Source: an uncultured delta proteobacterium (GTDB taxonomy: Bacteria; Myxococcota_A; Polyangia; Haliangiales; Haliangiaceae). From it: a stretch of DNA of 64,000 nt. Location: positions 261,470 to 325,469 of the forward strand of contig CAVZFC010000035.1 in NCBI GenBank assembly GCA_963774445.1. Direction: 5' to 3'. The position numbers were made by a program, and so were the translations under genes. Of the stretch, positions 2,274-30,468 are shown piece by piece (positions within the stretch are counted from its first letter, which is position 1; every line of letters begins with the position of its first letter). The notes under the pieces were generated by a model. It was not told the DNA's origin and did not search any database. It saw nothing but the letters and a program-made list of their open reading frames with translations.

Positions 2274-4747
2274 CAGGACTCGTTGAGCAGCCTTTGCAGA
2301 CTTTTTAGCTGCCATCCGTCGAGACTATCCCAAAGATCGTCGTCGCGGACGGTCCAGCCCTCCTTGAAATGCCCCTGCCACGAGTGCCCCTCGAGCCGGC
2401 GGAAGAGCTCTTTGCGCTCACCGGATGGCGCGGTCTGGAACAGCTCGAGGATTGAGGTCTGTTCTCCCTCGGACACGCCGATGCCCTGCCAGCTCTCCAG
2501 GTTGTTGATGTAGTGGATGCGCTGCTCCACGGTCAGGCCGCGGAGCAGAGTGTTTCTGTCAGCGGGCTTGCCGTCGGGCCCCGGCTTCTTCTCATCGGCC
2601 ATCTTCTGGCCTTTGTCGTGCAAACGATCAAGATCGGCCCGGGTGGCATCGTCCGTTCGCGAGTTGGCCTGCCCGCGCCCCGGGTCGAAGTCGATGATCT
2701 GCTGGATCTTGGCGCGCGTGGTCGATGGGGTGGTCATCTGCGCCAGGAAGCTGTTGTTGTACGCCGCCTGCGGATGCAGGTCGCCGAGATAGACCTGATA
2801 GCTTCCGACCGTGTCGTGCCAGACCGGCTTGGTCTCCGGGAACTTGGCCGCCAGGCCGCTGAGCTTGTCGCCGAACTCGCCGCCCGGGACCATCGACTGG
2901 AGGATGCGCAGCCCGAACGTCTCGTCCTGATCGCTGCGCACGCGTGCGCCCCACAACGTCTGGAAGTTGGACTGTTTCCAGCACTGGGTGCCGTTGTCGG
3001 CCGCTCGAGACGCATCCGGGAACGGCATCATCTGCTCGGCTCCATAGTTGGCCCCCGGTTTCGCCGGCGCCGCGGTGGTCGAGCGCACGTGGGCGATTAC
3101 CTCTTGCTCGCTCATGCTGGCATCCGCTGCATGGGCCTGCTGGATGTCGGAGACGCCGAGCCGGACGGCGGTCTCCACCTTCTCCTTGGTGGCATCCTGC
3201 TCGGCCGGAGCTCCCGGCGACACCCCGCCGTGGCTGTCGCCGAACGTCTTCCAGGACATCTGGAGCTCGTTGGTGACCCACAGCCCCCTGGCGTTGTCCA
3301 TGTCGTGGGTGATGAGCGACACGATGTCGTCGAAGCCGAACTCCGGCAGGCTGGCCGTCTTCTCGTCGATCTGCGCCTGGGTGTCCTTCATGATGTCGAG
3401 GACCGAGCCCATGATGGTGGCGGCGTTGGTCTCGTGGGCGTTCATGTAGATCGCCACGTCCTGGGCGATCGTTTTCTTGAGGTTCTCGAAGAACAGAGGG
3501 TACTTGCCGTTCCAGTACTCGGCGATGCTCGCGCGCGGCGTGCGCAGGTGGCCGGCGGCGAAGCCGTCAGTGAGGAAGTGCTCGGCGGCGGCCTCTCGCG
3601 CCATCGGCTCGTCGATCCCCTTGCCGTCCTTCTTGGCCTGGTGAGCGCGCAGGATCGCGTCCTCGTGCAAGGCTCGATAGCTGCCGCCGGCCGACTGCCG
3701 GTTGCCCGACTTGGGACCGCCCGAGCCCGGTCCCTTGGGGTTGGCGAAATGCTCGGTGTTGGAGTCGGCGAGTCGCAAGTAGCGAGCTTCGACAGCGTCC
3801 TTGACCTGCTGCGAGAACGTGACCTGCGACCAGATCCCCATCAGCGGATCTTTCTCGCTGCACATCGGCTTGAAGCGCCGGTCGTCGGGCCGGGCGTGCT
3901 TGACGGCGTAGATGATCTCGTCCTGCGTGCCGGGAATACATCCGGGCAGCGGCGAGGGCGTGCTCGCGAGCTTGAAGAAGTTGTCGGGAACCGGGTTGCC
4001 CTGCAGGTCGGTCTCGCGCGCGTCGAAGTAGTCGCCGCTCAGCATGACGATGTCGCCGTGGGTCAGCTCGAACCGGAAGTCGGGGCCCGGATCGACGCCG
4101 AGCGCCGGCGCCAACACCGGCGCCAACATGTGGTCGGTGTCCTGTTTGTAGGTGCCGTTGTACCCGGCCGCCTTGGCGCCTTCGTCGCCGTAGGTCTGGT
4201 GCTCCTTCGAGCCGAACATCTGGATCGGCTGCCCCTCGGCCTTGGCCTGGCCGGCTCCGGACGCGGCGCCGCTGTGACCGATCAGCTGAGACGGCACTGG
4301 CTCGCCGCGGACCGCCGCCGCGCCGGCCGCGTCGGCCTCGGCTTCGAGCCCCTCGTCGGCGTTAATCGGTGAGCCCTTGGCCTGCGGTGCAGCGACCCGC
4401 CCGGCCCGCTGCTGCTGGACGTGAGCCAACTCGTGTCCGAGCAGCGCCGTCCCCTCGCGCGTCGACGGGGTGCCGCGGCCAGCCGCCAGATGAACCGTCT
4501 CACCCTGCGTGTAGGCCTGCGCGCCCAGCGCATCGGCGCGCCCGTCCTGCTTGACGTTGACGCCGGAGAAGTCGGTCCCGAACACCTGGCCCATCTGTGT
4601 CTTGACCGCGTCCATGCTCGAGCCGACCAGCCCTTGTGCGCGCTCTGCCGACGGCACCGGCGCAGATTCGGCCGCTTGGTCCTCGCGCTGGGGCGCGGCC
4701 GGAGTGGCGGCCGTATCGCGATCGTGAGAGTCGTCCAGTTGGCGCAT
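2273..4747 (-). CDS. DUF4157 (zincin-like HExxH) domain-containing large protein, putative toxin/effector-like
   Basis: 824-aa ORF. The N-terminal region contains LLGHELAHVQQQ, which is typical of DUF4157. I did not recognise the C-terminal 600 aa. Confidence 0.65.
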   Translation of the reverse strand: MRQLDDSHDRDTAATPAAPQREDQAAESAPVPSAERAQGLVGSSMDAVKTQMGQVFGTDFSGVNVKQDGRADALGAQAYTQGETVHLAAGRGTPSTREGTALLGHELAHVQQQRAGRVAAPQAKGSPINADEGLEAEADAAGAAAVRGEPVPSQLIGHSGAASGAGQAKAEGQPIQMFGSKEHQTYGDEGAKAAGYNGTYKQDTDHMLAPVLAPALGVDPGPDFRFELTHGDIVMLSGDYFDARETDLQGNPVPDNFFKLASTPSPLPGCIPGTQDEIIYAVKHARPDDRRFKPMCSEKDPLMGIWSQVTFSQQVKDAVEARYLRLADSNTEHFANPKGPGSGGPKSGNRQSAGGSYRALHEDAILRAHQAKKDGKGIDEPMAREAAAEHFLTDGFAAGHLRTPRASIAEYWNGKYPLFFENLKKTIAQDVAIYMNAHETNAATIMGSVLDIMKDTQAQIDEKTASLPEFGFDDIVSLITHDMDNARGLWVTNELQMSWKTFGDSHGGVSPGAPAEQDATKEKVETAVRLGVSDIQQAHAADASMSEQEVIAHVRSTTAAPAKPGANYGAEQMMPFPDASRAADNGTQCWKQSNFQTLWGARVRSDQDETFGLRILQSMVPGGEFGDKLSGLAAKFPETKPVWHDTVGSYQVYLGDLHPQAAYNNSFLAQMTTPSTTRAKIQQIIDFDPGRGQANSRTDDATRADLDRLHDKGQKMADEKKPGPDGKPADRNTLLRGLTVEQRIHYINNLESWQGIGVSEGEQTSILELFQTAPSGERKELFRRLEGHSWQGHFKEGWTVRDDDLWDSLDGWQLKSLQRLLNES

Positions 4748-4919: not shown

Positions 4920-5831
4920 TCAGGGCGCCGGGACGCCGCGCAGCAGGACCCCGCGCGAGCCGGCGATCCAGACGGCGCCACCACAGGGAGCGACCGCGGT
5001 GAGATCTTCGCTGACTCCGCTGGGCGCGATCGAGAACTGCTTGCCGTCGGCGGAGACCAGGACGGTGCCGGCGCGCCCAACGGCGTAGACGGCGCCGCCG
5101 GGGTCGGTTGCGAGGTCGAACAGCGGCGCCCTGGCCGGGGTCGGTCGGGCGCGAAACGTCTTGCCTCCGTCCGCCGAGGCCAGGAGCTTGCTGTCGTCTG
5201 GGGCGTTCGCCAGCAGCGTGCCGTCGGGCGCGACCGCCAGGGCGCCGCCGATGTCGGGGCCGTCGCGGTGGCCCATGCCCATCGGTCCCGTGTCCGGTCC
5301 GGTCCAGACGCGCTTCCAGCTGCCGCCGTCGTCGTCGGAGCGGAGCAGGAACACGAAGGCGCTCTCGAGGCTGTCGTGGACCATCAGCGCGCTGCCCAGG
5401 GCGTAGAGCTGCGAGCCGTCGGGCGCGACTGCGAGCCGCAGCAGTCTGACCCGGTATTCCTTCAGGACGTTTCCGGGCTCCGCGATCTGCGGGCCGCGGC
5501 TCCAGTGTTGCCCGCCGTCGACCGAGCGCATCAAGTGACCGTCGTCGGCCACGCGGTAGACGCGGTCGCCCAGTCGCGCGGTCACGTGCGGGTCCACGGC
5601 GTCGGTCGGCGGCGCGGGCGCCTCGGCGGCCCCGCCCGCGGGAGAGTGACGGCGGCCGTGACTGTCGCCGATCGAGATTCGACCCTCCGCCGAGCAATAG
5701 AGGTGGTCGAGATGGTCTGTGGTTCCGGCGGAGACTCGCGTCCAGACGAGGCGCGGTGGGACGCGATTGGCGTGGGCCGAACAACCGGCGACCAAGAGGG
5801 CGAGGAGACTCCAACGCATCGGACCCAGCAT
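4920..5831 (-). CDS. BNR/Asp-box repeat (Ycf48-like beta-propeller) lipoprotein
   Basis: Lipobox LLVAGCSA. Repeated D-G-G-x-x-W/F motifs (DGGQHWSR, DDGGSWKRV, DGGKTFRA). Confidence 0.6.
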   Translation of the reverse strand: MLGPMRWSLLALLVAGCSAHANRVPPRLVWTRVSAGTTDHLDHLYCSAEGRISIGDSHGRRHSPAGGAAEAPAPPTDAVDPHVTARLGDRVYRVADDGHLMRSVDGGQHWSRGPQIAEPGNVLKEYRVRLLRLAVAPDGSQLYALGSALMVHDSLESAFVFLLRSDDDGGSWKRVWTGPDTGPMGMGHRDGPDIGGALAVAPDGTLLANAPDDSKLLASADGGKTFRARPTPARAPLFDLATDPGGAVYAVGRAGTVLVSADGKQFSIAPSGVSEDLTAVAPCGGAVWIAGSRGVLLRGVPAP

Positions 5832-19951: not shown

Positions 19952-21984
<2,033 letters not shown>

Positions 21985-21988
<4 letters not shown>

Positions 21989-22998
21989 CCCGCGCGCTGG
22001 TCACCGGGGCGACGGGGTTCATCGGTCGGTATCTGGTCGAGCTGCTCAGGGAGTCCGGCCACGACGTGGTCTGTCTGGTGCGGCCGTCGTCGGATCGCAG
22101 CGCGCTCCAGGCGCTGGGCTGCGACTTCGCCGAGGGCGACATCACCGATCCGTCGTCGATGGAAGCGCCGGCGGCTGCCGCCGACGTCGTCTTCCACCTG
22201 GCGGCGATGCTCAAGCAGCCGTGGCACGCCGAGTTCATGGCGACCAACGCCGACGGCGTGCGCGCCGTGGCCGCCGCCTGCGCCGCCGCCGACACGCCGC
22301 CGGTCCTGGTCACGGTGTCGTCGATCGCGGCGGCCGGGCCGAGCAACGGCGGGCGCCCGCGCACCGAGGACGATCCGCCGGCGCCGGTGTCGCGCTACGG
22401 CCGCTCCAAGCTGGGCGGTGAAGAGGCCGCGCGCGAGCACGCCAAGCGGGTGCCGATCACCATCATCCGCCCGCCGGCAGTGATCGGCGCGCGCGACCGC
22501 GCGTCGCTGCCGCTGTTCCGCGCCGCCGCCCGCGGCGTCCACGCCGTGCCCGGCGACGGCAACGCGCGACTGGCGATGGTCCACGTGTTGGATCTGGCCG
22601 CGGCCATCGCCGCCGCCGCCGAGCGTGGCGAGCGGCTGCCGGCGCCCGGCCCGGACGCGCCGCTGGGGCAGGGCGTCTACTTCGCCGCCGCCACCGAGCA
22701 GCCGACCCTGCGCGAGCTGGGGCCGATGCTGGCCACCGCGGTCGGGCGCGAGCGGGTGCGCGTCCTGCCGACGCCGGCGACGCTGTCCAAGCTGGTCGGC
22801 GGCATCGCCGAGGGGCTGGCGCGCCTGCGCGACAAGCCGAGCATCGTCAACTACGACAAGATGATCGAGGCCAACGCCGGCTCGTGGATCTGCAGCACCG
22901 ACAAGGCGCGCGAGCAGCTCGACTGGCAGCCGGCGGCCACGCTGGGGGAGCGGCTGGAGCAGACCGGCGCGTGGTACCGGCGGGAGGGCTGGCTCTGA
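21985..22998 (+). CDS. NAD-dependent epimerase/dehydratase
   Basis: GTG start overlapping the previous stop. Rossmann [19 protein letters not shown] active-site motif. Confidence 0.8.
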
Positions 22999-23762
22999 GC
23001 CGGCCCGCCCTGCACCTCCAGCGCCGCGGCGCCGGGCCCGCAGTCCTGTTCATCCACGGCAGCGCCGCCGACCACACCACCTGGGCGATGCAGGCGGCGC
23101 TGGCCGCGTCGCTCGAGCTGGTCACCTACGATCGCCGGGGCAGCGGTGCGTCACCGCCGGCGCCGGCTGGCGTCCGGGTCGAGGACCACGCCGCCGACGC
23201 CGCGGTATTGATCGATGAGCAGCTCGGCGGCGGCCCGGTGCTGGTCTGCGGCTCGAGCTTCGGCGCCGTGGTCTCGCTGGAGCTGGCGCGGTCGCGACCG
23301 GAGCTGGTCCGCGGGCTGGTCCTGTGCGAGCCGCCGATGCCGTGCCACGACGACCTGCCGGCGATGCCGCAGGGGTTCGGCTGCGCCTTCGACGCCCGGG
23401 TCGCCACCCTCGGGGGCGAGGCCGGGGGCGCCTTCTTCCTGCAGCTGGTGCTGGGGCCGGCCTACGATTGCCTGCCGGCGCGCTACCAGGCGCGAGCGGC
23501 CGGCGAGTGGCGGGCGATCCGCGCCGACTGCCTGGCCCTGCAGCGCTATCGGCCGCGCTATCGCGAGCTGGGGGCGGTGGTGATGCCGGTGCTGTTGGTC
23601 GCCGGCGAGCGGTCGGTCGGCCATTTCGACGCCACCATCGACTCGCTCCAGCTCCATCTTCCGGATGCGCGTCTGGTCACACTCCCGCGCGCCGGGCACA
23701 TGATGCAGGCCGAGCGGTTCCGCCTGTTCAACAACTATCTCGCGGAGTTCGCCGGGGTCTGA
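22971..23762 (+). CDS. alpha/beta hydrolase
   Basis: VLFIHGSAADHTTW. Nucleophile elbow GSSFG. C-terminal GHMMQ. Confidence 0.7.
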   Translation: MVPAGGLALSRPALHLQRRGAGPAVLFIHGSAADHTTWAMQAALAASLELVTYDRRGSGASPPAPAGVRVEDHAADAAVLIDEQLGGGPVLVCGSSFGAVVSLELARSRPELVRGLVLCEPPMPCHDDLPAMPQGFGCAFDARVATLGGEAGGAFFLQLVLGPAYDCLPARYQARAAGEWRAIRADCLALQRYRPRYRELGAVVMPVLLVAGERSVGHFDATIDSLQLHLPDARLVTLPRAGHMMQAERFRLFNNYLAEFAGV

Positions 23763-23857
23763 AAAAAGTCGCGAAGGGTCCGGTGCGAGCGGGCACTACA
23801 TCAGTAAGACGCGCGCGCTTTCCTGCTCAACCCCCATTCCGGGAGAGGACCCCACCC

Positions 23858-25141
23858 ATGACAACCGCGATGAAGACCGCGATGCGATCGGGCGCGCTGC
23901 GTGCGCTCCTGGCTACCGCGGCCCTGTGCGCTGCGTGCGCCGATCCGCCATCCACCCAGACGCTGTCGGGGCGTCTATCCACCTCTAGCTTCGACTCTCG
24001 CCCCGTCGGTGTGCGCGTGGTCCAGGGCGATCAAGTGATCGCCGAGGCCCCGCTGCGTGGCGACGGCTCGTACGCCGTGGCCGTGCCCGAGGGCACCGGC
24101 TATCGCCTCGAGGTCGTCACCGCCGACGGCGCCCATCCGTTCGTCGTCAAGAACGGCCAGGGCACCCGGCGCGTCGCCTTCGACGTCTGCGGTGGCGGCA
24201 ACGATGCCTGGGATCTGGGCATGGGCGTCTACTGGGGCGGCGACGGCACCGACTCGTCGGGCGGCGGCCGCGACTCGTCGGGCGACGGCTCGTCCGGCAG
24301 CGGTGGCGGCTCCAGCGATCCCGGCTGCGGTGGTGGCGATCCGCCGCCTCCGTGCGACCCGGCCGATCCCAACTGCGTGCCGCCGCCGTGCGGGCCGGAC
24401 GGCTCCGGTTGCTGTGACCCGAGCGATCCCAACTGCGTGCCGCCGCCTCCGTGCGACCCGGCCGTGGATCCGAACTGCCCGCCGCCGCCTCCTCCTCCGT
24501 GCGACCCGGCGACGGATCCGAGCTGCGTGCCTCCGCCGTGCGGACCGGACGGCTCCGGTTGCTGCGACCCGAGCGATCCGAACTGCCCGCCGCCGCCGCC
24601 GCCGTGCGACCCGTCAACCGATCCCAACTGCGATCCGTGTGGTCCCGACGGCTCCGGCTGCTGCGATCCGACGGATCCGAACTGCCCGCCGCCGCCGTGC
24701 GATGCGACGGATCCGAACTGTCCGCCGCCGCCGCCGTGCGACCCATCAACCGATCCCAACTGCGATCCGTGTGGCCCCGACGGCTCCAACTGCTGCGATT
24801 CCAGCGATCCCAACTGCCAACCGCCGCCTCCGCCCTGCGATGCGACGGATCCCAACTGCGATCCCTGCCTGATCGACCCGACGTTCTGTGATCCGTGCCT
24901 CGCGAACCCGGATTGGTGCTGGCCTCCGCCGCCGCCTTGCGAGGACAATGGGGATCCCGCCGGTTGTGGCCCTACCGACCCCACGTGCGACCCCACCGAT
25001 CCGATCTGCTGGCCCGATCCCACGCCGCCGCCCCCCGACTGCGGCGATCCGTGGGCCGATCCCAACGCTCCGTGTGGCGTTCCGCCCGACGACGGCTGCG
25101 TGATCGACCCACCGCCAGCCTTCGGTTGCGAGGCCGGCTGA
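23858..25141 (+). CDS. lipoprotein with N-terminal CarboxypepD_reg/transthyretin-like domain and C-terminal Cys-Asp-Pro repeat region
   Basis: Lipobox LCAAC. RVVQGDQVIAEAPLRGDGSYAVAVPEGTGYRLEVV. At least 4 copies of CGPDGSGCCDP(S/T)DPNC separated by PPPP(P)CDPxTDPNC, with about 45 Cys in 240 aa. Confidence 0.7.
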   Translation: MTTAMKTAMRSGALRALLATAALCAACADPPSTQTLSGRLSTSSFDSRPVGVRVVQGDQVIAEAPLRGDGSYAVAVPEGTGYRLEVVTADGAHPFVVKNGQGTRRVAFDVCGGGNDAWDLGMGVYWGGDGTDSSGGGRDSSGDGSSGSGGGSSDPGCGGGDPPPPCDPADPNCVPPPCGPDGSGCCDPSDPNCVPPPPCDPAVDPNCPPPPPPPCDPATDPSCVPPPCGPDGSGCCDPSDPNCPPPPPPCDPSTDPNCDPCGPDGSGCCDPTDPNCPPPPCDATDPNCPPPPPCDPSTDPNCDPCGPDGSNCCDSSDPNCQPPPPPCDATDPNCDPCLIDPTFCDPCLANPDWCWPPPPPCEDNGDPAGCGPTDPTCDPTDPICWPDPTPPPPDCGDPWADPNAPCGVPPDDGCVIDPPPAFGCEAG

Positions 25142-25142
25142 G

Positions 25143-26317
25143 TTGAAAGCTCGGCTGGCAGGAGCGTGCGCGACGGTCGCGATCGCGGTCGGTTGGACCG
25201 CCGCGTCCGCTCCTGCCCAGCCGCGTTGTTCCGAGACCGGCGCCCCCACGGCGTCGGTTTCCGGCGGTCCGGAGGCGGGCGACGTGGCGCGCGCCCTGCG
25301 CGCCCGCGGTGTCCGCGCCGCCGCTGATTCGTGCGCCGCTGTTCGCGTGACGGTCGGCGCCGGTGAGCGCGGGCTCGAGGTCACGGTCCACGCCGCCGAC
25401 GGACGCGACGCCCGTCGCCGCGTCTCCACCGCCGAGATGGCCGCGGTCTGGATCGACTCTTGGGTGCGCGACGACGCGGTCGCGCCGCTGCTGGCGGTGC
25501 CGGAGCCGGTGCCACCAACGACCGCGGCCGCGGCAATTCCCGCCGAGTCCCGGACGGGCTCCCGGCGCCGCGGCGCTGTCGCCGCCCGGCGACGTCGTTC
25601 CTCGCCAGCAGACGCCGGCCGCGCGCCACTGGCTGTCGCTCGGCGCTGGCGTCGACTTTCTCTCCGGCGACGAGGGCTCCAGCTCGCGCTCGGTGCGCGG
25701 CAGCGCCTGCGTTGCGGCCGGCCCGTTGTGCGTCGGTCTCGACGGACGCTACGCCGACGCCTCGTCGCTGGCGCCCGAGGACAACATGACGCAGCTCCGC
25801 CGGCGCGGTGTTCGACCTCATGGCCACCGCCCGCTGGCCGGTGTCGGTCGGCCGCGCGGTGCTGGCGCCGAGCGCGTCGGTCGGCCTGGGTTGGATGCGC
25901 ACCGAGAAGCGCTGGCCGACCGACAACATCACCGATCCGCCCCCGTGCGGCCCGGACGGCGCAGGCTGCTGCGATCCGGCCAGCGATCCCAACTGCTGCG
26001 ATCCCACGACCCCCAACTGCGTGCCGACTCCACCGCCGCCGTACACTCCGGTCGATCACTACGCCAAGGACACCTTCGAGCTCCGCGTCGGCGGCTCGCT
26101 GTCGCTGACGCTGCCGGTGACCGACAACGTGGCGGTCGAGCTGGCGGCCGGCGTTGTCTTCTCGCCCACGGCCAGCAAGAACCCGATCGATCCCTACGCC
26201 GCCGACCGCGCCGACCCGACCAAGGACCCGCCGCCCGCGGATTCGCTCAATACGCTGCCGGCCGAGCCGGGACGCTCCACCTGGTTGGGGCTCGGCGTGA
26301 GGGTGGGGCTGCCGTGA
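25143..26317 (+). pseudogene. secreted protein carrying one CGPDGAGCCDPASDPNCCDP motif plus beta-barrel-like C-terminus, disrupted by two frameshifts
   Basis: The plausible protein reads in frame 0 (25143..~25560), then frame +1 (~25570..25800), then frame +2 (25811..26317). Frame +2 has an in-frame TGA just upstream of VFDLMATARWP. Confidence 0.45.
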
Positions 26318-26916
26318 AGTCGCGCCGGGGGCAGATCGTCCCGCTGCGCCGGGTCGTCGGCGACGCCAGCGAGATGTCGGACGAGGCGCTGCTCGCCGCC
26401 TGCGCCGTGGCTGAGCCGGCCGCGCTCGGCGCGCTGTTCGACCGGCACGCCGCCTGCGTGCACCGGTTCCTCGGCCGCCTCGCCCCGGCCGGCCGCGGCG
26501 ACCTGGACGATCTGGTGCAGATGACGTTCGTCGAGGTGTGGAAGTCGTCATCGCGCTTCCGCGGCACCGGCTCGGCGCGCAGCTGGATCCTCGGCATCGC
26601 GGCCAACGTCGCCCGCCACCACGCGCGCGGCGAGGCCCGCCGTTCCAGCGCCTTGCGCGACCTGGCCGAGGTGCCGCGGCCGCGAGCGCCGCGCCCGGAT
26701 GAGCAGGCCGCCCGCGGGCAGCTCGTCGAGCGCCTGGCCGACGCCGTGCGCGCGCTGCCCCACGACCTGCGGGTGGCGTTCGTCCTGTGCGACGTCGAAG
26801 GCATTCCGGGAGCGGCCGCCGCACGCTCCCTGGGAGTTCGCGAAGGAACCATGTGGCGCCGGCTGCACGACGCGCGCAAGCGCCTGCGCACCCGGCTCGA
26901 AGGGAGGCCATCATGA
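26314..26916 (+). CDS. ECF-family RNA polymerase sigma factor
   Basis: Region 2 (DLVQMTFVEVWK) and region 4 (AARSLGVREGTMWRRLHDARKRLR). GTG start. An alternative ATG lies at 26374. Confidence 0.8.
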   Translation: MKSRRGQIVPLRRVVGDASEMSDEALLAACAVAEPAALGALFDRHAACVHRFLGRLAPAGRGDLDDLVQMTFVEVWKSSSRFRGTGSARSWILGIAANVARHHARGEARRSSALRDLAEVPRPRAPRPDEQAARGQLVERLADAVRALPHDLRVAFVLCDVEGIPGAAAARSLGVREGTMWRRLHDARKRLRTRLEGRPS

Positions 26917-28067
26917 CCGCCGAGGAGCTGGCCACGCTCGCCCGCGAGCTGCCGCACCCGCCGCTCGAGCCGGCGCGGGCGGAGGCCATTCGCAGTAGCT
27001 TGCTCGCCGAAGTCGAAGCGACCGCGACGGTGCCCGCGCACCGCCTCCGCCGCTGGGCCGCACCCGCCGCGGTTGCGCTGGTCGCCGCTGCCGCGGTGGC
27101 CCTGTGGCTGGGGCTGCGCGGCGGTCCCCACGCGACCCCGTCCGCACCCGAGTTCGCCCACCACGGCACCGTGCAGGCCCCCGACGGCGCCCAGTTCGTG
27201 CACACCGCCAAGCCGGCCGTTGACGGCGCCACCGATGAGGTCGTCAGGCTGCGCTCCGGTCACGTCACCGTCGCCGTGGCCGACGTCGCCACCCGCGACC
27301 GCTTCCGCGTCGTCACCGGCGACGCCGAGATCGAGTCGCGCGACAGCGCCTTCGACGTGAAGGTCGAGGGCGACGCCCTGGCCGGCGTCACCGTGCATAC
27401 CGGCGTCGCCGAAGTGCGCGTCCACGGCCAGCAGACCGTCCTCCTCGGCGCCGGCGAAACGTGGCCCCGCGAGGAAACCAAGGTCGTCGTCCAGGATCTC
27501 GACCTGGCCGCCCCCGCGCCCGCACCCGCACCCGCAGTCCAGCAGGCCGCTCATCCTGAGCGGAGCCCGATCCCTCGACAAGCTCAGGACCAGGGGCCTC
27601 GGGCGGAGTCGAAGGAGCCCACCCCCGCGCCCGCGCCCACGCCCGCGCTGACCCAGGCGGAGCCGCCCGCTGCCGCCCGCGCCCCCTCGGCCAGCCCGAT
27701 GGAGCAGGCATTCCACGACGGCTGGACGTCGCTGCGCGACAAGCAGTTCCGCACCGCCGCCGACGCCTTCGCCCGCGCCGCGCGCATCGATCCCGACGCG
27801 CCGCTGGCCGAAGACGCCCACTACTGGCTCGCCGTCGCCCGCGCCCGCGCCGGCCAGACCCGCCGCGCCGCCGCCGCCATGCGCGACTTCCTGTCTCGCC
27901 ACCCGTTCTCCGATCGCGCCGGCGAGGTCTCGGTCATGCTCGGCTGGATCGAGCTCCGCGCAGGCGACCACGCCCACGCCGAAGCGCATTTCCGCGCCGC
28001 CATCGACGACGACCGCACCGACGTCCGCGCCAGCGCCCGCGCCGGCCTCGACGCCCTGACCCGCTGA
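26913..28067 (+). CDS. anti-sigma factor (FecR-like domain, TM segment, C-terminal TPR-like region)
   Basis: ATGA overlap with the sigma gene. TM segment AAPAAVALVAAAAVALWL. RFRVVTGDAEIESRDSAFDV is FecR-like. Confidence 0.7.
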   Translation: MTAEELATLARELPHPPLEPARAEAIRSSLLAEVEATATVPAHRLRRWAAPAAVALVAAAAVALWLGLRGGPHATPSAPEFAHHGTVQAPDGAQFVHTAKPAVDGATDEVVRLRSGHVTVAVADVATRDRFRVVTGDAEIESRDSAFDVKVEGDALAGVTVHTGVAEVRVHGQQTVLLGAGETWPREETKVVVQDLDLAAPAPAPAPAVQQAAHPERSPIPRQAQDQGPRAESKEPTPAPAPTPALTQAEPPAAARAPSASPMEQAFHDGWTSLRDKQFRTAADAFARAARIDPDAPLAEDAHYWLAVARARAGQTRRAAAAMRDFLSRHPFSDRAGEVSVMLGWIELRAGDHAHAEAHFRAAIDDDRTDVRASARAGLDALTR

Positions 28068-28105
28068 TCCCGCGCGCACGAACCAGGTACCCACCAGCCA
28101 CCGAG

Positions 28106-28170
28106 CCGGTCGCCCTGAGCTTGTCGAAGGGCGCATCGGACGCGCCCTTCGACAGGCTCAGGGCGACCGG
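28106..28170. repeat. near-perfect 29-bp-arm palindrome (REP-like element)
   Basis: ccggtcgccctgagcttgtcgaagggcgc-atcggac-gcgcccttcgacaggctcagggcgaccgg. One mismatch between arms. It lies between convergent genes. Confidence 0.85.
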
Positions 28171-28214
28171 AGACAAAGCCGTGCTGGATGGGAACGTCGG
28201 TCGTAGCCGGCGGG

Positions 28215-29765
<1,551 letters not shown>

Positions 29766-29772
29766 ACGGATG

Positions 29773-30468
29773 CTACTTGCCGCCGCCTGCGCGCTGGGCT
29801 TCCACCTTCATCGTGTCGTACTTCTTCTTCTCGACCTGGTACTTGGCCTTCTCCTGGTCGGCCAGCGCCTTGGTGCGCTGGGCCTCACGCGACCGGGCGT
29901 CGAACTGCTCTTTGTACGGCGGCATGGCGAAGCCCTTGGGCCGGATGTTCTTCTGCTGGGCGACCTGCGCCTTGCTCAGCTCGAACTTGGCCTCTTGCGC
30001 GTACATCTGCTCCTCGGTGTAGAGGATGTACTTCTCCAGCCACTTCTTCTCGGCCTTGACCGCGGCGACCTTCTGGTCGGCGGCGCGGCGCGCCATCTCT
30101 GCGGCCCGCAGGTCGGCCTTGGCCGTGTTCACCCGGTTCATGTCGCCCGTGCTCTCGGCGTTCTTCTGCTTGGACTTGGCCGAGTCCTCGGCCAGCAGCG
30201 CCTGCTTGAGCTCGTTCTTGGCTACCTCGGCGCGGGTGGCGTTGTCTTCCAGCTTGGTCTGGGCGGTCATGTATTCGCCCTTGGCAATCTGGTAGTCGTT
30301 CTGCGCCTTGAACACTTCTTGCCGCTCCGCGATTGGCACGCGGGCGATGTGATACTCGTCGAAGTGATGGCTGAGAGGCTGGGGCCTCTTGGGGCCGCTG
30401 CCGCCGCAAGCCGCCAGCGCGGCGGCGAGCAGCGCGACCCAATAGGAGCTGCGCATGGACTCCGGCAT
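29773..30468 (-). CDS. coiled-coil lipoprotein
   Basis: Internal start MPESMRSSYWVALLAAALAACGG. Lys/Glu/Ala-rich heptad-like sequence. Confidence 0.55.
   Translation of the reverse strand: MPESMRSSYWVALLAAALAACGGSGPKRPQPLSHHFDEYHIARVPIAERQEVFKAQNDYQIAKGEYMTAQTKLEDNATRAEVAKNELKQALLAEDSAKSKQKNAESTGDMNRVNTAKADLRAAEMARRAADQKVAAVKAEKKWLEKYILYTEEQMYAQEAKFELSKAQVAQQKNIRPKGFAMPPYKEQFDARSREAQRTKALADQEKAKYQVEKKKYDTMKVEAQRAGGGK

Follow-up and report, generated by a model that had tools for sequence, protein, structure and literature searches.

A probable lipoprotein with a Cys-Asp-Pro repeat array heads a conserved four-gene operon with an extracytoplasmic function sigma factor in an uncultured member of the Haliangiales

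A gene for a probable lipoprotein with an unusual Cys-Asp-Pro repeat array was analyzed together with its surroundings in a 64,000-nt stretch of DNA (hereafter the window) from an uncultured member of the Haliangiales (positions 261,470 to 325,469 of contig CAVZFC010000035.1, assembly GCA_963774445.1). The gene (23858..25141, plus strand) stands at the head of a conserved operon of four genes with translational coupling. It is followed by an unannotated gene (gene 2, approximately 370 aa in the two long contigs L001 and L002), a gene encoding a sigma factor of the extracytoplasmic function (ECF) class, and a gene for an anti-sigma factor with a tetratricopeptide repeat (TPR) domain. The lipoprotein gene encodes 427 aa. 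It starts with ATG at 23858, with a GGAGAGG-like ribosome-binding site 8–9 nt 5′ of this codon, and ends with TGA at 25139-25141. Its open reading frame was favored by third-position GC content (GC3) over most of 23880-25080, and 137 homologues (E ≤ 1e-3) showed a like architecture. Inside the repeat, GC3 was nearly equal for this frame and one other frame; there, the lipoprotein frame was assigned because the homologues hold the N-terminal and C-terminal parts in a single frame.

The signal peptide and lipobox (23858..23938, plus strand) were read from the sequence: a positively charged n-region and a hydrophobic h-region are followed by L-C-A-A-C27 (..ATAALCAA directly before C27). The window lipobox, read by eye, has Cys at position -3 and is one position off the consensus [LVI][ASTVI][GAS]C. 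Most relatives have a canonical lipobox (LAAC, IAGC, and VGC occur), and C27 was conserved in ≥90% of 119 aligned sequences. The product is probably a lipoprotein, as the initial annotation of the gene had stated.

Residues 157-427 (271 aa) contain 94 Pro, 45 Asp, 43 Cys, 22 Gly, and 14 Asn, so that these five amino acids represent 80% of the region, which bears out the description of the array as composed almost wholly of C, D, P, N, and G. Asp and Glu together number 47, and Lys, Arg, and His are absent; Cys accounts for 16% and Asp for 17% of the repeat region. The array (24353..24859, plus strand; aa 166-334) consists of ten Cys-Asp-Pro units (CD(P/A)xxDP(N/S)C, or CD(P/A)x(1-2)DP(N/S)C with the variable spacing), a variant CDSSDPNC (aa 313-320), and four CGPDGS(G/N)C units, with poly-Pro spacers between them. 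The 16-residue unit CGPDGSGCCDP(S/T)DPNC had been reported to recur at least four times. Its exact form occurs at three places only (aa 178, 228, and 261), and a fourth copy at aa 305 differs at two positions (CGPDGSNCCDSSDPNC); the earlier count therefore holds only if this variant is included. The 16-residue units alternate with the ten Cys-Asp-Pro units and ten P(3-7)C runs, the same alternation that had been noted originally. Of the 42 intervals between successive Cys residues, 24 measured 6 or 7 residues, compared with 4.4 ± 2.0 intervals in shuffled sequences (0 of 20,000 shuffles reached 24), and CC was present only at four unit–unit junctions. In the underlying DNA, Tandem Repeats Finder detected arrays with periods of 48, 99, and 132 nt across 24425-24858 (top score 413, 87% matches), in agreement with the repetitive DNA initially placed at 24330-24860. 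The array is preceded by a disordered linker rich in Gly, Ser, and Asp (24248..24343, plus strand; aa 131-162), with which a 21-nt tandem repeat at 24239-24289 overlaps. It is followed by a conserved Cys-rich C-terminal region (24860..25138, plus strand; aa 335-427) that ends in a near-invariant F-G-C motif. Near-invariant positions in this region are C344, C347, C354, C384-W-P, C395, C406, and F422-G423-C424.

The lipoprotein was modeled with AlphaFold2 using the alignment of 119 sequences. The N-terminal domain (23948..24247, plus strand; aa 31-130) was predicted with high confidence (predicted local distance difference test, pLDDT, 87-97) as a seven-stranded, transthyretin-like (prealbumin-like) β-sandwich with an invariant Cys111, whereas pLDDT was <50 for residues 132-162 of the linker. 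Foldseek matched the sandwich to folds of the transthyretin-like and CarboxypepD_reg-like kinds (DUF3823, Ole e 1, TTR-52, HIU hydrolase, teneurin, and EMC7; E 4e-4 to 1e-2). At the sequence level, the window protein had no Pfam match at E ≤ 1, CarboxypepD_reg (PF13620) included. Among the 119 aligned relatives, Pfam gave weak N-domain matches only (Big_6 in 17, HZS_alpha in 13, and CarboxypepD_reg in 3, with a best E of 8.7e-5). Thus, the initial assignment of a transthyretin/CarboxypepD_reg-like N-domain was right about the fold class, but membership of the family was not borne out. Near the other end, residues 411-420 (VIDPPPAFGC) formed a short strand with a pLDDT of 92. Taken with the invariant C111 and C424, this suggests that the C-terminus may dock on the β-sandwich. 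The C-terminal motif is retained in a paralogue that lacks the repeat (locus L012) and in distant relatives.

Neither Pfam nor NCBIfam release 20, which is assumed to include the TIGRFAM models of myxococcal Cys repeats, gave any match to the lipoprotein at E ≤ 1. Sequence and profile searches of the PDB with the lipoprotein and the gene-2 protein gave nothing significant. When the 119 relatives were searched against Pfam at E ≤ 0.01, the described myxococcal Cys-rich repeats (TIGR04201, TIGR02232/PF13948) were absent and the repeat region was unmatched. No description of the lipoprotein family or of its operon was found in the literature. The statement that no characterized family has this repeat was thereby upheld, and a match to a known family, which would have overturned it, did not appear. 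The 137 relatives came from a word-indexed search of 5.8 billion proteins, and all of them were unnamed or labeled "hypothetical." The family is small: when 1.84 billion cluster representatives were searched exhaustively with HMMER, 148 relatives were recovered at E ≤ 1e-3, 39 of them at E ≤ 1e-10. Almost all source-named relatives and genome loci were metagenome-assembled genomes (MAGs) of Kofleriaceae, Haliangiales, Myxococcales, or Polyangiales. The relatives share a lipobox, an N-domain of approximately 95 residues with the invariant C111, a Cys/Asp/Pro region of variable length, and a C-terminal C-x-DP-C ... C-W-P ... F-G-C motif.

The number of C-DP-x-DP-x-C units per relative ranged from 0 to 15. 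The L012 paralogue (190 aa; 3219-3835) has the N-domain, a Gly/Ser linker, the C-terminal Cys motif, and 10 Cys in all, with no Cys-Asp-Pro repeat. It lies amid small outer-membrane-protein-like genes within a 6.26-Mb Kofleriaceae contig, and gene 2, the sigma factor, and the anti-sigma factor are not adjacent to it. The closest comparison was with L024 (MAG MFD05684), which showed 83-92% nucleotide identity to the window across 22071-30009 and has 5 CGPDGSxC and 13 Cys-Asp-Pro units, compared with 4 and 11 in the window. The L024 gene has a frameshift of its own within a poly-Pro tract of the repeat (approximately 5500-5560, minus strand). In distant relatives the unit is replaced by acidic Cys-bracketed loops (ECEDGIDAxTGAxCVDDD) and both ends are kept. 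In many homologues (P0082, P0098, L008, L018, and others), the variable positions are often occupied by Met (CMDPTDPNC, CDPMTDPMC), and a single protein may contain as many as 24 Met. The mature part of the window lipoprotein has one Met, sited in the repeat, and the repeat has no His. From these comparisons, the array reads as a dispensable, variable-length insert between two conserved ends. At locus L009 (6317-7990; P0056), the lipoprotein N-domain and repeats are joined in-frame to the final ~400 anti-sigma factor residues, with ..CDPNN running directly into VVLSAGQTWRASVIT.. at the junction. This locus lacks gene 2 and the sigma factor, as well as the C-terminal motif of the lipoprotein and the N-terminus of the anti-sigma factor, and the fusion is either a deletion or an assembly chimera.

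The same unit was also found outside the family. The exhaustive search detected it between the DUF11 domains of an unrelated 2205-aa surface protein (P0146). Eight exact tandem copies precede an Ig-like domain in the unrelated P0200 (He_PIG), and a PPPPCDPATDPxC stalk precedes the C-terminal membrane anchor of a 1656-aa β-helix/Ig protein with Big domains (P0243). No Pfam model covered the Cys-Asp-Pro/poly-Pro unit in these three proteins. The lipoprotein family and its C-DP-x-DP-x-C plus poly-Pro module are undescribed, and the lipoprotein is lineage-specific (Kofleriaceae/Haliangiales).

A degenerate pattern at the DNA level, written to match the N-domain stretch P-x-G-x-x-Y-R-[LIM]-E-[VI]-x-T-x-x-G, was used to collect loci from one genome per GTDB species. 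The scan gave 23 loci, of which 22 were real (Kofleriaceae, Haliangiales, Myxococcales, or less specifically labeled MAGs); L017 (Gemmatimonadota) had no protein match and was discarded as a chance hit. According to tblastn, the four-gene order was present in 17 loci in addition to the window, and it was found in all 12 metagenome loci with enough flanking sequence. In four further loci, the available sequence stops within or just past the lipoprotein gene, and the exceptions to the order were the L012 orphan and the L009 deletion or fusion. In the window, the lipoprotein stop ends at 25141 and gene 2 starts with TTG at 25143, the gene-2 stop overlaps the GTG start of the sigma factor at 26314, and the sigma factor stop overlaps the ATG of the anti-sigma factor at 26913. 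Overlaps between start and stop codons were also present in L001 and L002. The genes that flank the operon were not conserved when L001 and L002 were compared, and the next gene downstream is convergent; thus, the unit consists of these four genes. This operon context, which proved decisive, had escaped the initial annotation.

Gene 2 (25143..26317, plus strand) was delimited by GC3 frames and by comparison with the L024 orthologue. The window copy runs across three frames, with two +1 frameshifts (~25548 and ~25811) in the homopolymers GGG and TT relative to the intact L024/P0122 orthologue, which represent either assembly error or a recent pseudogene. The gene was modeled with AlphaFold2 as the intact orthologue P0122. 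The alignment had nine sequences, because word-indexed homologue searches, in which low-complexity words overwhelm the candidate filter, returned 3 and 7 proteins only. The predicted product is a secreted protein with an alpha/beta N-domain (beta-alpha-beta-beta-beta-alpha, with two conserved Cys), a disordered linker of ~50 residues, and eight long strands of 11-20 residues. The turns between strands 2-3, 4-5, and 6-7 are short, and the 5-6 and 7-8 loops are long. Foldseek matched the strands to the OmpA transmembrane domain, NspA, Ail, OmpX, and OmpW (probability ~1, target-normalized TM-score ~0.5). On this model, which is of modest confidence, gene 2 has an OmpA-like, eight-stranded β-barrel. 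No Pfam or NCBIfam family matched it. The loop between strands 5 and 6 (25946..26020, plus strand) carries a Cys-Asp-Pro unit, CGPDGAGCCDPASDPNCCDPTTPNC, and would be extracellular loop 3 if the N-terminus is periplasmic; it is probably surface-exposed in the model. One C-DP-x-DP-x-C unit was present at this loop in 13 of 19 gene-2 sequences, the window included, and within the window the unit was confined to the lipoprotein gene and gene 2.

The third gene (26314..26916, plus strand), whose GTG start lies over the gene-2 stop, encodes an ECF sigma factor: regions 2 and 4 only were found, and the models exceeded their cut-offs (Sigma70_r2, 47.4 bits, cut-off 24; Sigma70_r4_2, 42.7 bits, cut-off 25.7; TIGR02937, 71.1 bits, cut-off 42.9). 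The fourth gene (26913..28067, plus strand) starts at the ATGA over the sigma factor stop and encodes a single-pass anti-sigma factor. A short cytoplasmic N-terminus and a transmembrane helix are followed by a FecR-like region, a linker rich in Pro, Ala, and Thr, and, at the C-terminus, a YbgF/BamD-type TPR domain (TPR_2, 35.2 bits, and YfiO, 28.8 bits, both above cut-off; tol_pal_ybgF, E 1.7e-11, below cut-off). The low-complexity linker that separates the FecR-like and TPR parts lies at 27500-27700 in the window and is likewise present in L002, L005, and L013. The length of the anti-sigma factor ranged from 384 to 669 aa over 10 complete loci. A small proteobacterial group, ECF267, with anti-sigma factors that are FecR-like and TPR-bearing, was described by Casas-Pastor et al. 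2021 (PMC7826278). The sigma factor of the operon may belong to ECF267.

A bipartite promoter-like motif, CGAAGGGTC-N9-CGGGCACTA, lies ~60 nt upstream of the lipoprotein start codon (23772..23798, plus strand). Its consensus, CGAAGG(G/A/T)T(C/T)-N9-CGGGCAC(T/G)N, occurs 5′ of the lipoprotein start in the window and in 23 family loci, with an invariant spacer of 9 nt. It lies at most ~65 nt from the start where the start could be placed, and the DNA around it is unconserved. Its geometry, GAAG-N16-GCAC, would fit an ECF-type promoter. The window contains one zero-mismatch copy. In metagenome contigs, exact matches were found at 54 loci, 26 of which have the family N-domain directly downstream. 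Gene 2 was present in 12 of 12 of these motif-plus-N-domain loci with ≥2.1 kb of flanking sequence. About 20 other exact matches occurred in DNA of varied GC content or inside long open reading frames and thus look like chance. The motif is also present upstream of the L012 paralogue. One exact match (L051 1155-1770, minus strand) precedes a gene for a secreted TlpA-like thioredoxin-fold protein (WCQPC; AhpC-TSA 68 bits, Redoxin 59 bits). The contig is metagenomic and 1.8 kb long, and the match could mark a member of the regulon or have arisen by chance.

Downstream, the operon is bounded by a convergent gene of the response-regulator/GAF/HD-GYP type (28215-29765, minus strand; HD_5 123 bits). 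Upstream by 1.9 kb lies a thioredoxin-like gene (Thioredox_DsbH/DUF255; 19952-21988, plus strand; 246 bits), followed by an NAD-dependent epimerase gene and an alpha/beta hydrolase gene. At least from the epimerase gene on, these neighbors are common to the window and L024, whereas neither L001 nor L002 has the DUF255, epimerase, or hydrolase gene in its flanks. A kinase gene 7.5 kb upstream was seen in L001 only.

The lipoprotein is probably part of a cell-envelope signaling or protection module. The reading that we favor, to which we assign a probability of approximately 45%, is that lipoprotein and barrel assemble into a complex in the outer membrane, which serves an autoregulated ECF circuit both as its chief product and as its extracytoplasmic arm for sensing or feedback, with the array as a rigid, disulfide-stapled polyanionic spacer. 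The lipoprotein would be made from one autoregulated ECF-type promoter and be translationally coupled to the barrel, the sigma factor, and the anti-sigma factor. Its β-sandwich would sit beside the lipid anchor, and the C-terminal Cys motif may fold back onto it. The array would form a spacer or projecting loop of variable length, made of short C-x6-7-C loops that are probably closed by disulfides and joined by polyproline. We read it as a spacer or stalk mainly because the Cys-Asp-Pro unit links domains in unrelated surface proteins. With a net charge near -47, the array should bind divalent cations. The barrel would present its own Cys-Asp-Pro unit in a long, probably surface-exposed loop and keep its N-domain in the periplasm, where the FecR-like and TPR parts of the anti-sigma factor would also lie. 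A disturbance of the complex (loss of disulfides, loss of bridging cations, or mechanical or contact stress) might be relayed through the periplasmic domain of the barrel to the anti-sigma factor, which would release the sigma factor and re-induce the operon. The disulfides, the cation binding, the complex, the direction of signaling, and the stimulus are all inferred.

Several results weigh against this interpretation. The FecR model (PF04773) scored 22.2-23.2 bits in the window anti-sigma factor, below its cut-off of 24. Scores in the N-terminal halves of relatives were 13.8-18.3 bits in three of five, also below cut-off, although the matches cluster in about one region of the protein, and the full-length L002 anti-sigma factor had no FecR match. 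The repeat was modeled at a pLDDT of 50-85 with no secondary structure. Among 80 complete relatives, the Cys count was odd in 42 and even in 38, which does not fit a simple, all-paired rod; a fully paired intramolecular disulfide lattice is thus not a conserved constraint. The gene-2 model had a mean pLDDT of 59 from nine sequences, and no match was identified for its N-domain fold. Stalk length and anti-sigma length did not co-vary (ρ = -0.21, P = 0.57, n = 10), and we rejected on this lack of correlation a "molecular ruler" linking the two. Motif scans of the window and the metagenome contigs found no member of the regulon beyond the operon and the orphan paralogue, so that a pure output role, as a protective coat or sink, is as compatible with the data as a sensor role. 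Finally, the relatives identified were from metagenomes or MAGs throughout, with no named isolate. A more specific version, which we regard as quite unlikely, is a new, TonB-independent kind of cell-surface device in which the lipoprotein and the barrel would each expose the Cys-Asp-Pro unit on the outside and these units would join, within a cell or between cells in contact, through bridging Ca2+ or disulfide exchange, with a change of contact relayed via the periplasmic N-domain of the barrel to the FecR/TPR anti-sigma factor.

The dense disulfide or metal coordination, with an extracellular or matrix role, that the initial annotation proposed from the composition is plausible. The composition of the array would also suit a metal sink or buffer, an alternative that we consider unlikely but still a serious contender. 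The array would then be an extracytoplasmic metallothionein-like or Ca2+-binding polyanion, which takes up Cu, Cd, or Zn through Cys (and through Met in the relatives) and Ca2+ or Mg2+ through Asp, and the lipoprotein would be an effector induced by the ECF factor under metal or envelope stress. The high Cys and Asp content of the repeat, its lack of basic residues, the Met-rich units of many relatives, and the acidic Cys-bracketed loops of distant ones point in this direction, as does the unconstrained Cys parity, which makes free thiols possible. In addition, the lipoprotein genes themselves are the only visible targets of the promoter motif, and myxobacterial ECF sigma factors responsive to Cu or Cd/Zn are known (CorE2, PMC4937300). 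However, the window repeat itself has a single Met and no His, metal-efflux, oxidase, and chaperone genes were not conserved beside the operon (L001, L002, and the window), and the paralogue with the same promoter has no repeat. The unit is a plain linker in unrelated multidomain proteins, and the regular C-x6-7-C spacing flanked by Pro resembles closed loops rather than C-x-C or CC thiolate clusters. Exported proteins in the oxidizing envelope are usually disulfide-bonded, which also counts against a sink. Repeat variability would suit a surface stalk, adhesin, or recognition protein similar to TraA, in which a rigid Cys-rich stalk presents a binding end, the barrel anchors or exposes it, and the ECF pair sets the expression level only. 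Rapid change in repeat number would then diversify cell–cell or cell–matrix recognition or allow evasion of phages or predators. Consistent with this, copy number (0-15) differs between close relatives, the unit serves as a stalk in large surface proteins, and the partner barrel has a unit in a probably external loop. The Cys-rich tandem repeat of TraA has itself been proposed as a rigid stalk, and its gene is co-transcribed and overlaps with TraB (PMC3325183). Against a stalk of this kind, the conserved parts are the two ends, with no recognizable PA14, VWA, or lectin ligand-binding domain, and conservation peaks in the N-domain beside the lipid anchor, the opposite of what a variable head at the distal end would show. 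The TraAB locus as described (PMC3325183) is not tightly coupled to a sigma/anti-sigma pair, and surface exposure of the lipoprotein is putative. On balance, a role in recognition also seems unlikely.

Given the extreme Cys density of an exported protein that is co-expressed with an anti-sigma factor, the lipoprotein might serve as a sentinel for oxidative protein folding, with the misfolded 44-Cys protein detected by the TPR/FecR part of the anti-sigma factor. NlpE signaling to Cpx in E. coli provides the model. The promoter motif upstream of the L051 thioredoxin gene would fit, but this is a single instance on a short contig and may be chance. The paralogue without the repeat keeps 10 Cys only, no Dsb gene was conserved nearby in L001 and L002, and the DUF255 thioredoxin-like gene of the window is absent from their flanks; we regard this function as very unlikely. 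Hardly any credence is given to an artifact, in which a GC-rich repeat of low complexity has been read in an incorrect frame or the gene is decaying. In this DNA of 70% GC, each of the three forward frames is open, GC3 discriminates weakly within the repeat, and both gene 2 of the window (two frameshifts) and the L024 lipoprotein orthologue (one, inside the repeat) are interrupted. This reading was rejected because a stop-free frame joins the conserved N-domain to the conserved C-terminal motif, >130 homologues hold the Cys positions and the architecture, and the Cys spacing is far from random. The frameshifts, being in homopolymers, fit long-read assembly error (the long-read origin of L024 was inferred from its sample name).

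If the lipoprotein and barrel are the input of the circuit, as in the reading we favor, the operon would represent cell-surface signaling without a TonB-dependent transducer. If the TonB-independent device exists, these myxobacteria would have a sensor devoted to redox state, cations, or contact and made from a previously undescribed type of repeat; as a sink for metals or oxidants, the lipoprotein would be an extracytoplasmic Cys-rich buffer of an unusual kind. Irrespective of function, the lipoprotein and its module add an undescribed family and a repeat whose use as a stalk or linker recurs in unrelated surface proteins of other organisms. The operon adds a compact, self-contained ECF module, for which there is a clear candidate promoter, from a myxobacterial order that has received little study. 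Until a carrier is available in culture, the practical value of the finding is modest.

Among known repeats, thrombospondin type-3 repeats are similar in having Asp-rich, Ca2+-binding loops bracketed by disulfide-forming Cys, but TSP_3 (PF02412) gave no match at E ≤ 1, and the unit C-D-P-x(1-2)-D-P-N-C lacks DxDxDG. Extensins likewise use polyproline segments as extended extracellular spacers, and one relative had a weak Extensin_1 match; the SPPPP/hydroxyproline context is absent from the window protein. Metallothioneins are small and usually cytoplasmic, with C-x-C, C-C, and C-x-x-C clusters, whereas the window protein is exported, has 427 aa, and has Cys mostly 6-7 residues apart. At the level of systems, the proposed lipoprotein–barrel arrangement resembles RcsF-OmpA/BamA-IgaA of Enterobacteria, in which an outer-membrane lipoprotein with a Pro-rich linker and a disulfide-bonded part works with β-barrels to report envelope damage to an inner-membrane regulator. 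RcsF has ~130 aa and 4 Cys, has no tandem repeat, and signals to a phosphorelay rather than an anti-sigma factor; it is not known to be homologous to the window lipoprotein. In Myxococcus xanthus, the operon for TraA, whose Cys-rich tandem repeat is the proposed disulfide-bonded stalk, also encodes, in an overlapping gene, the partner protein TraB with its OmpA-like (peptidoglycan-binding) domain (PMC3325183). The outer-membrane exchange receptor TraA (TIGR04201) and TraB thus share with the window operon a myxobacterial envelope protein with a tandem Cys-rich repeat and an overlapping gene for an envelope partner. However, there is no sequence relation, and the window protein matched no NCBIfam or Pfam model. 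Its unit is an 8-9 residue C-DP-x-DP-x-C loop plus poly-Pro instead of the TraA repeat, and it has an N-terminal lipobox with no MYXO-CTERM and no PA14 head. Its partner is a small eight-stranded barrel and not a protein with a peptidoglycan-binding OmpA C-domain, and the operon includes an ECF sigma/anti-sigma pair. FecA-FecR-FecI and the SusC/SusD-anti-sigma-ECF systems of Bacteroidota are similar in combining a barrel that has a periplasmic N-domain with an anti-sigma factor that is FecR-like, along with an ECF sigma factor. Gene 2 is not a TonB-dependent transducer of the FecIRA type (22-stranded barrel, plug, STN), because it had no Pfam or NCBIfam match and its modeled barrel has eight strands, with no plug, TonB box, or STN domain. 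Moreover, the anti-sigma factor ends in a TPR domain, its FecR match is below cut-off, and no transport substrate is implied. Membership in TraA/TraB, in FecAIR/SusCD-ECF, and in RcsF each fails on at least one of the defining features tested, and the four-gene module of lipoprotein, eight-stranded barrel, sigma factor, and anti-sigma factor is undescribed within a recognizable type of ECF envelope circuit.

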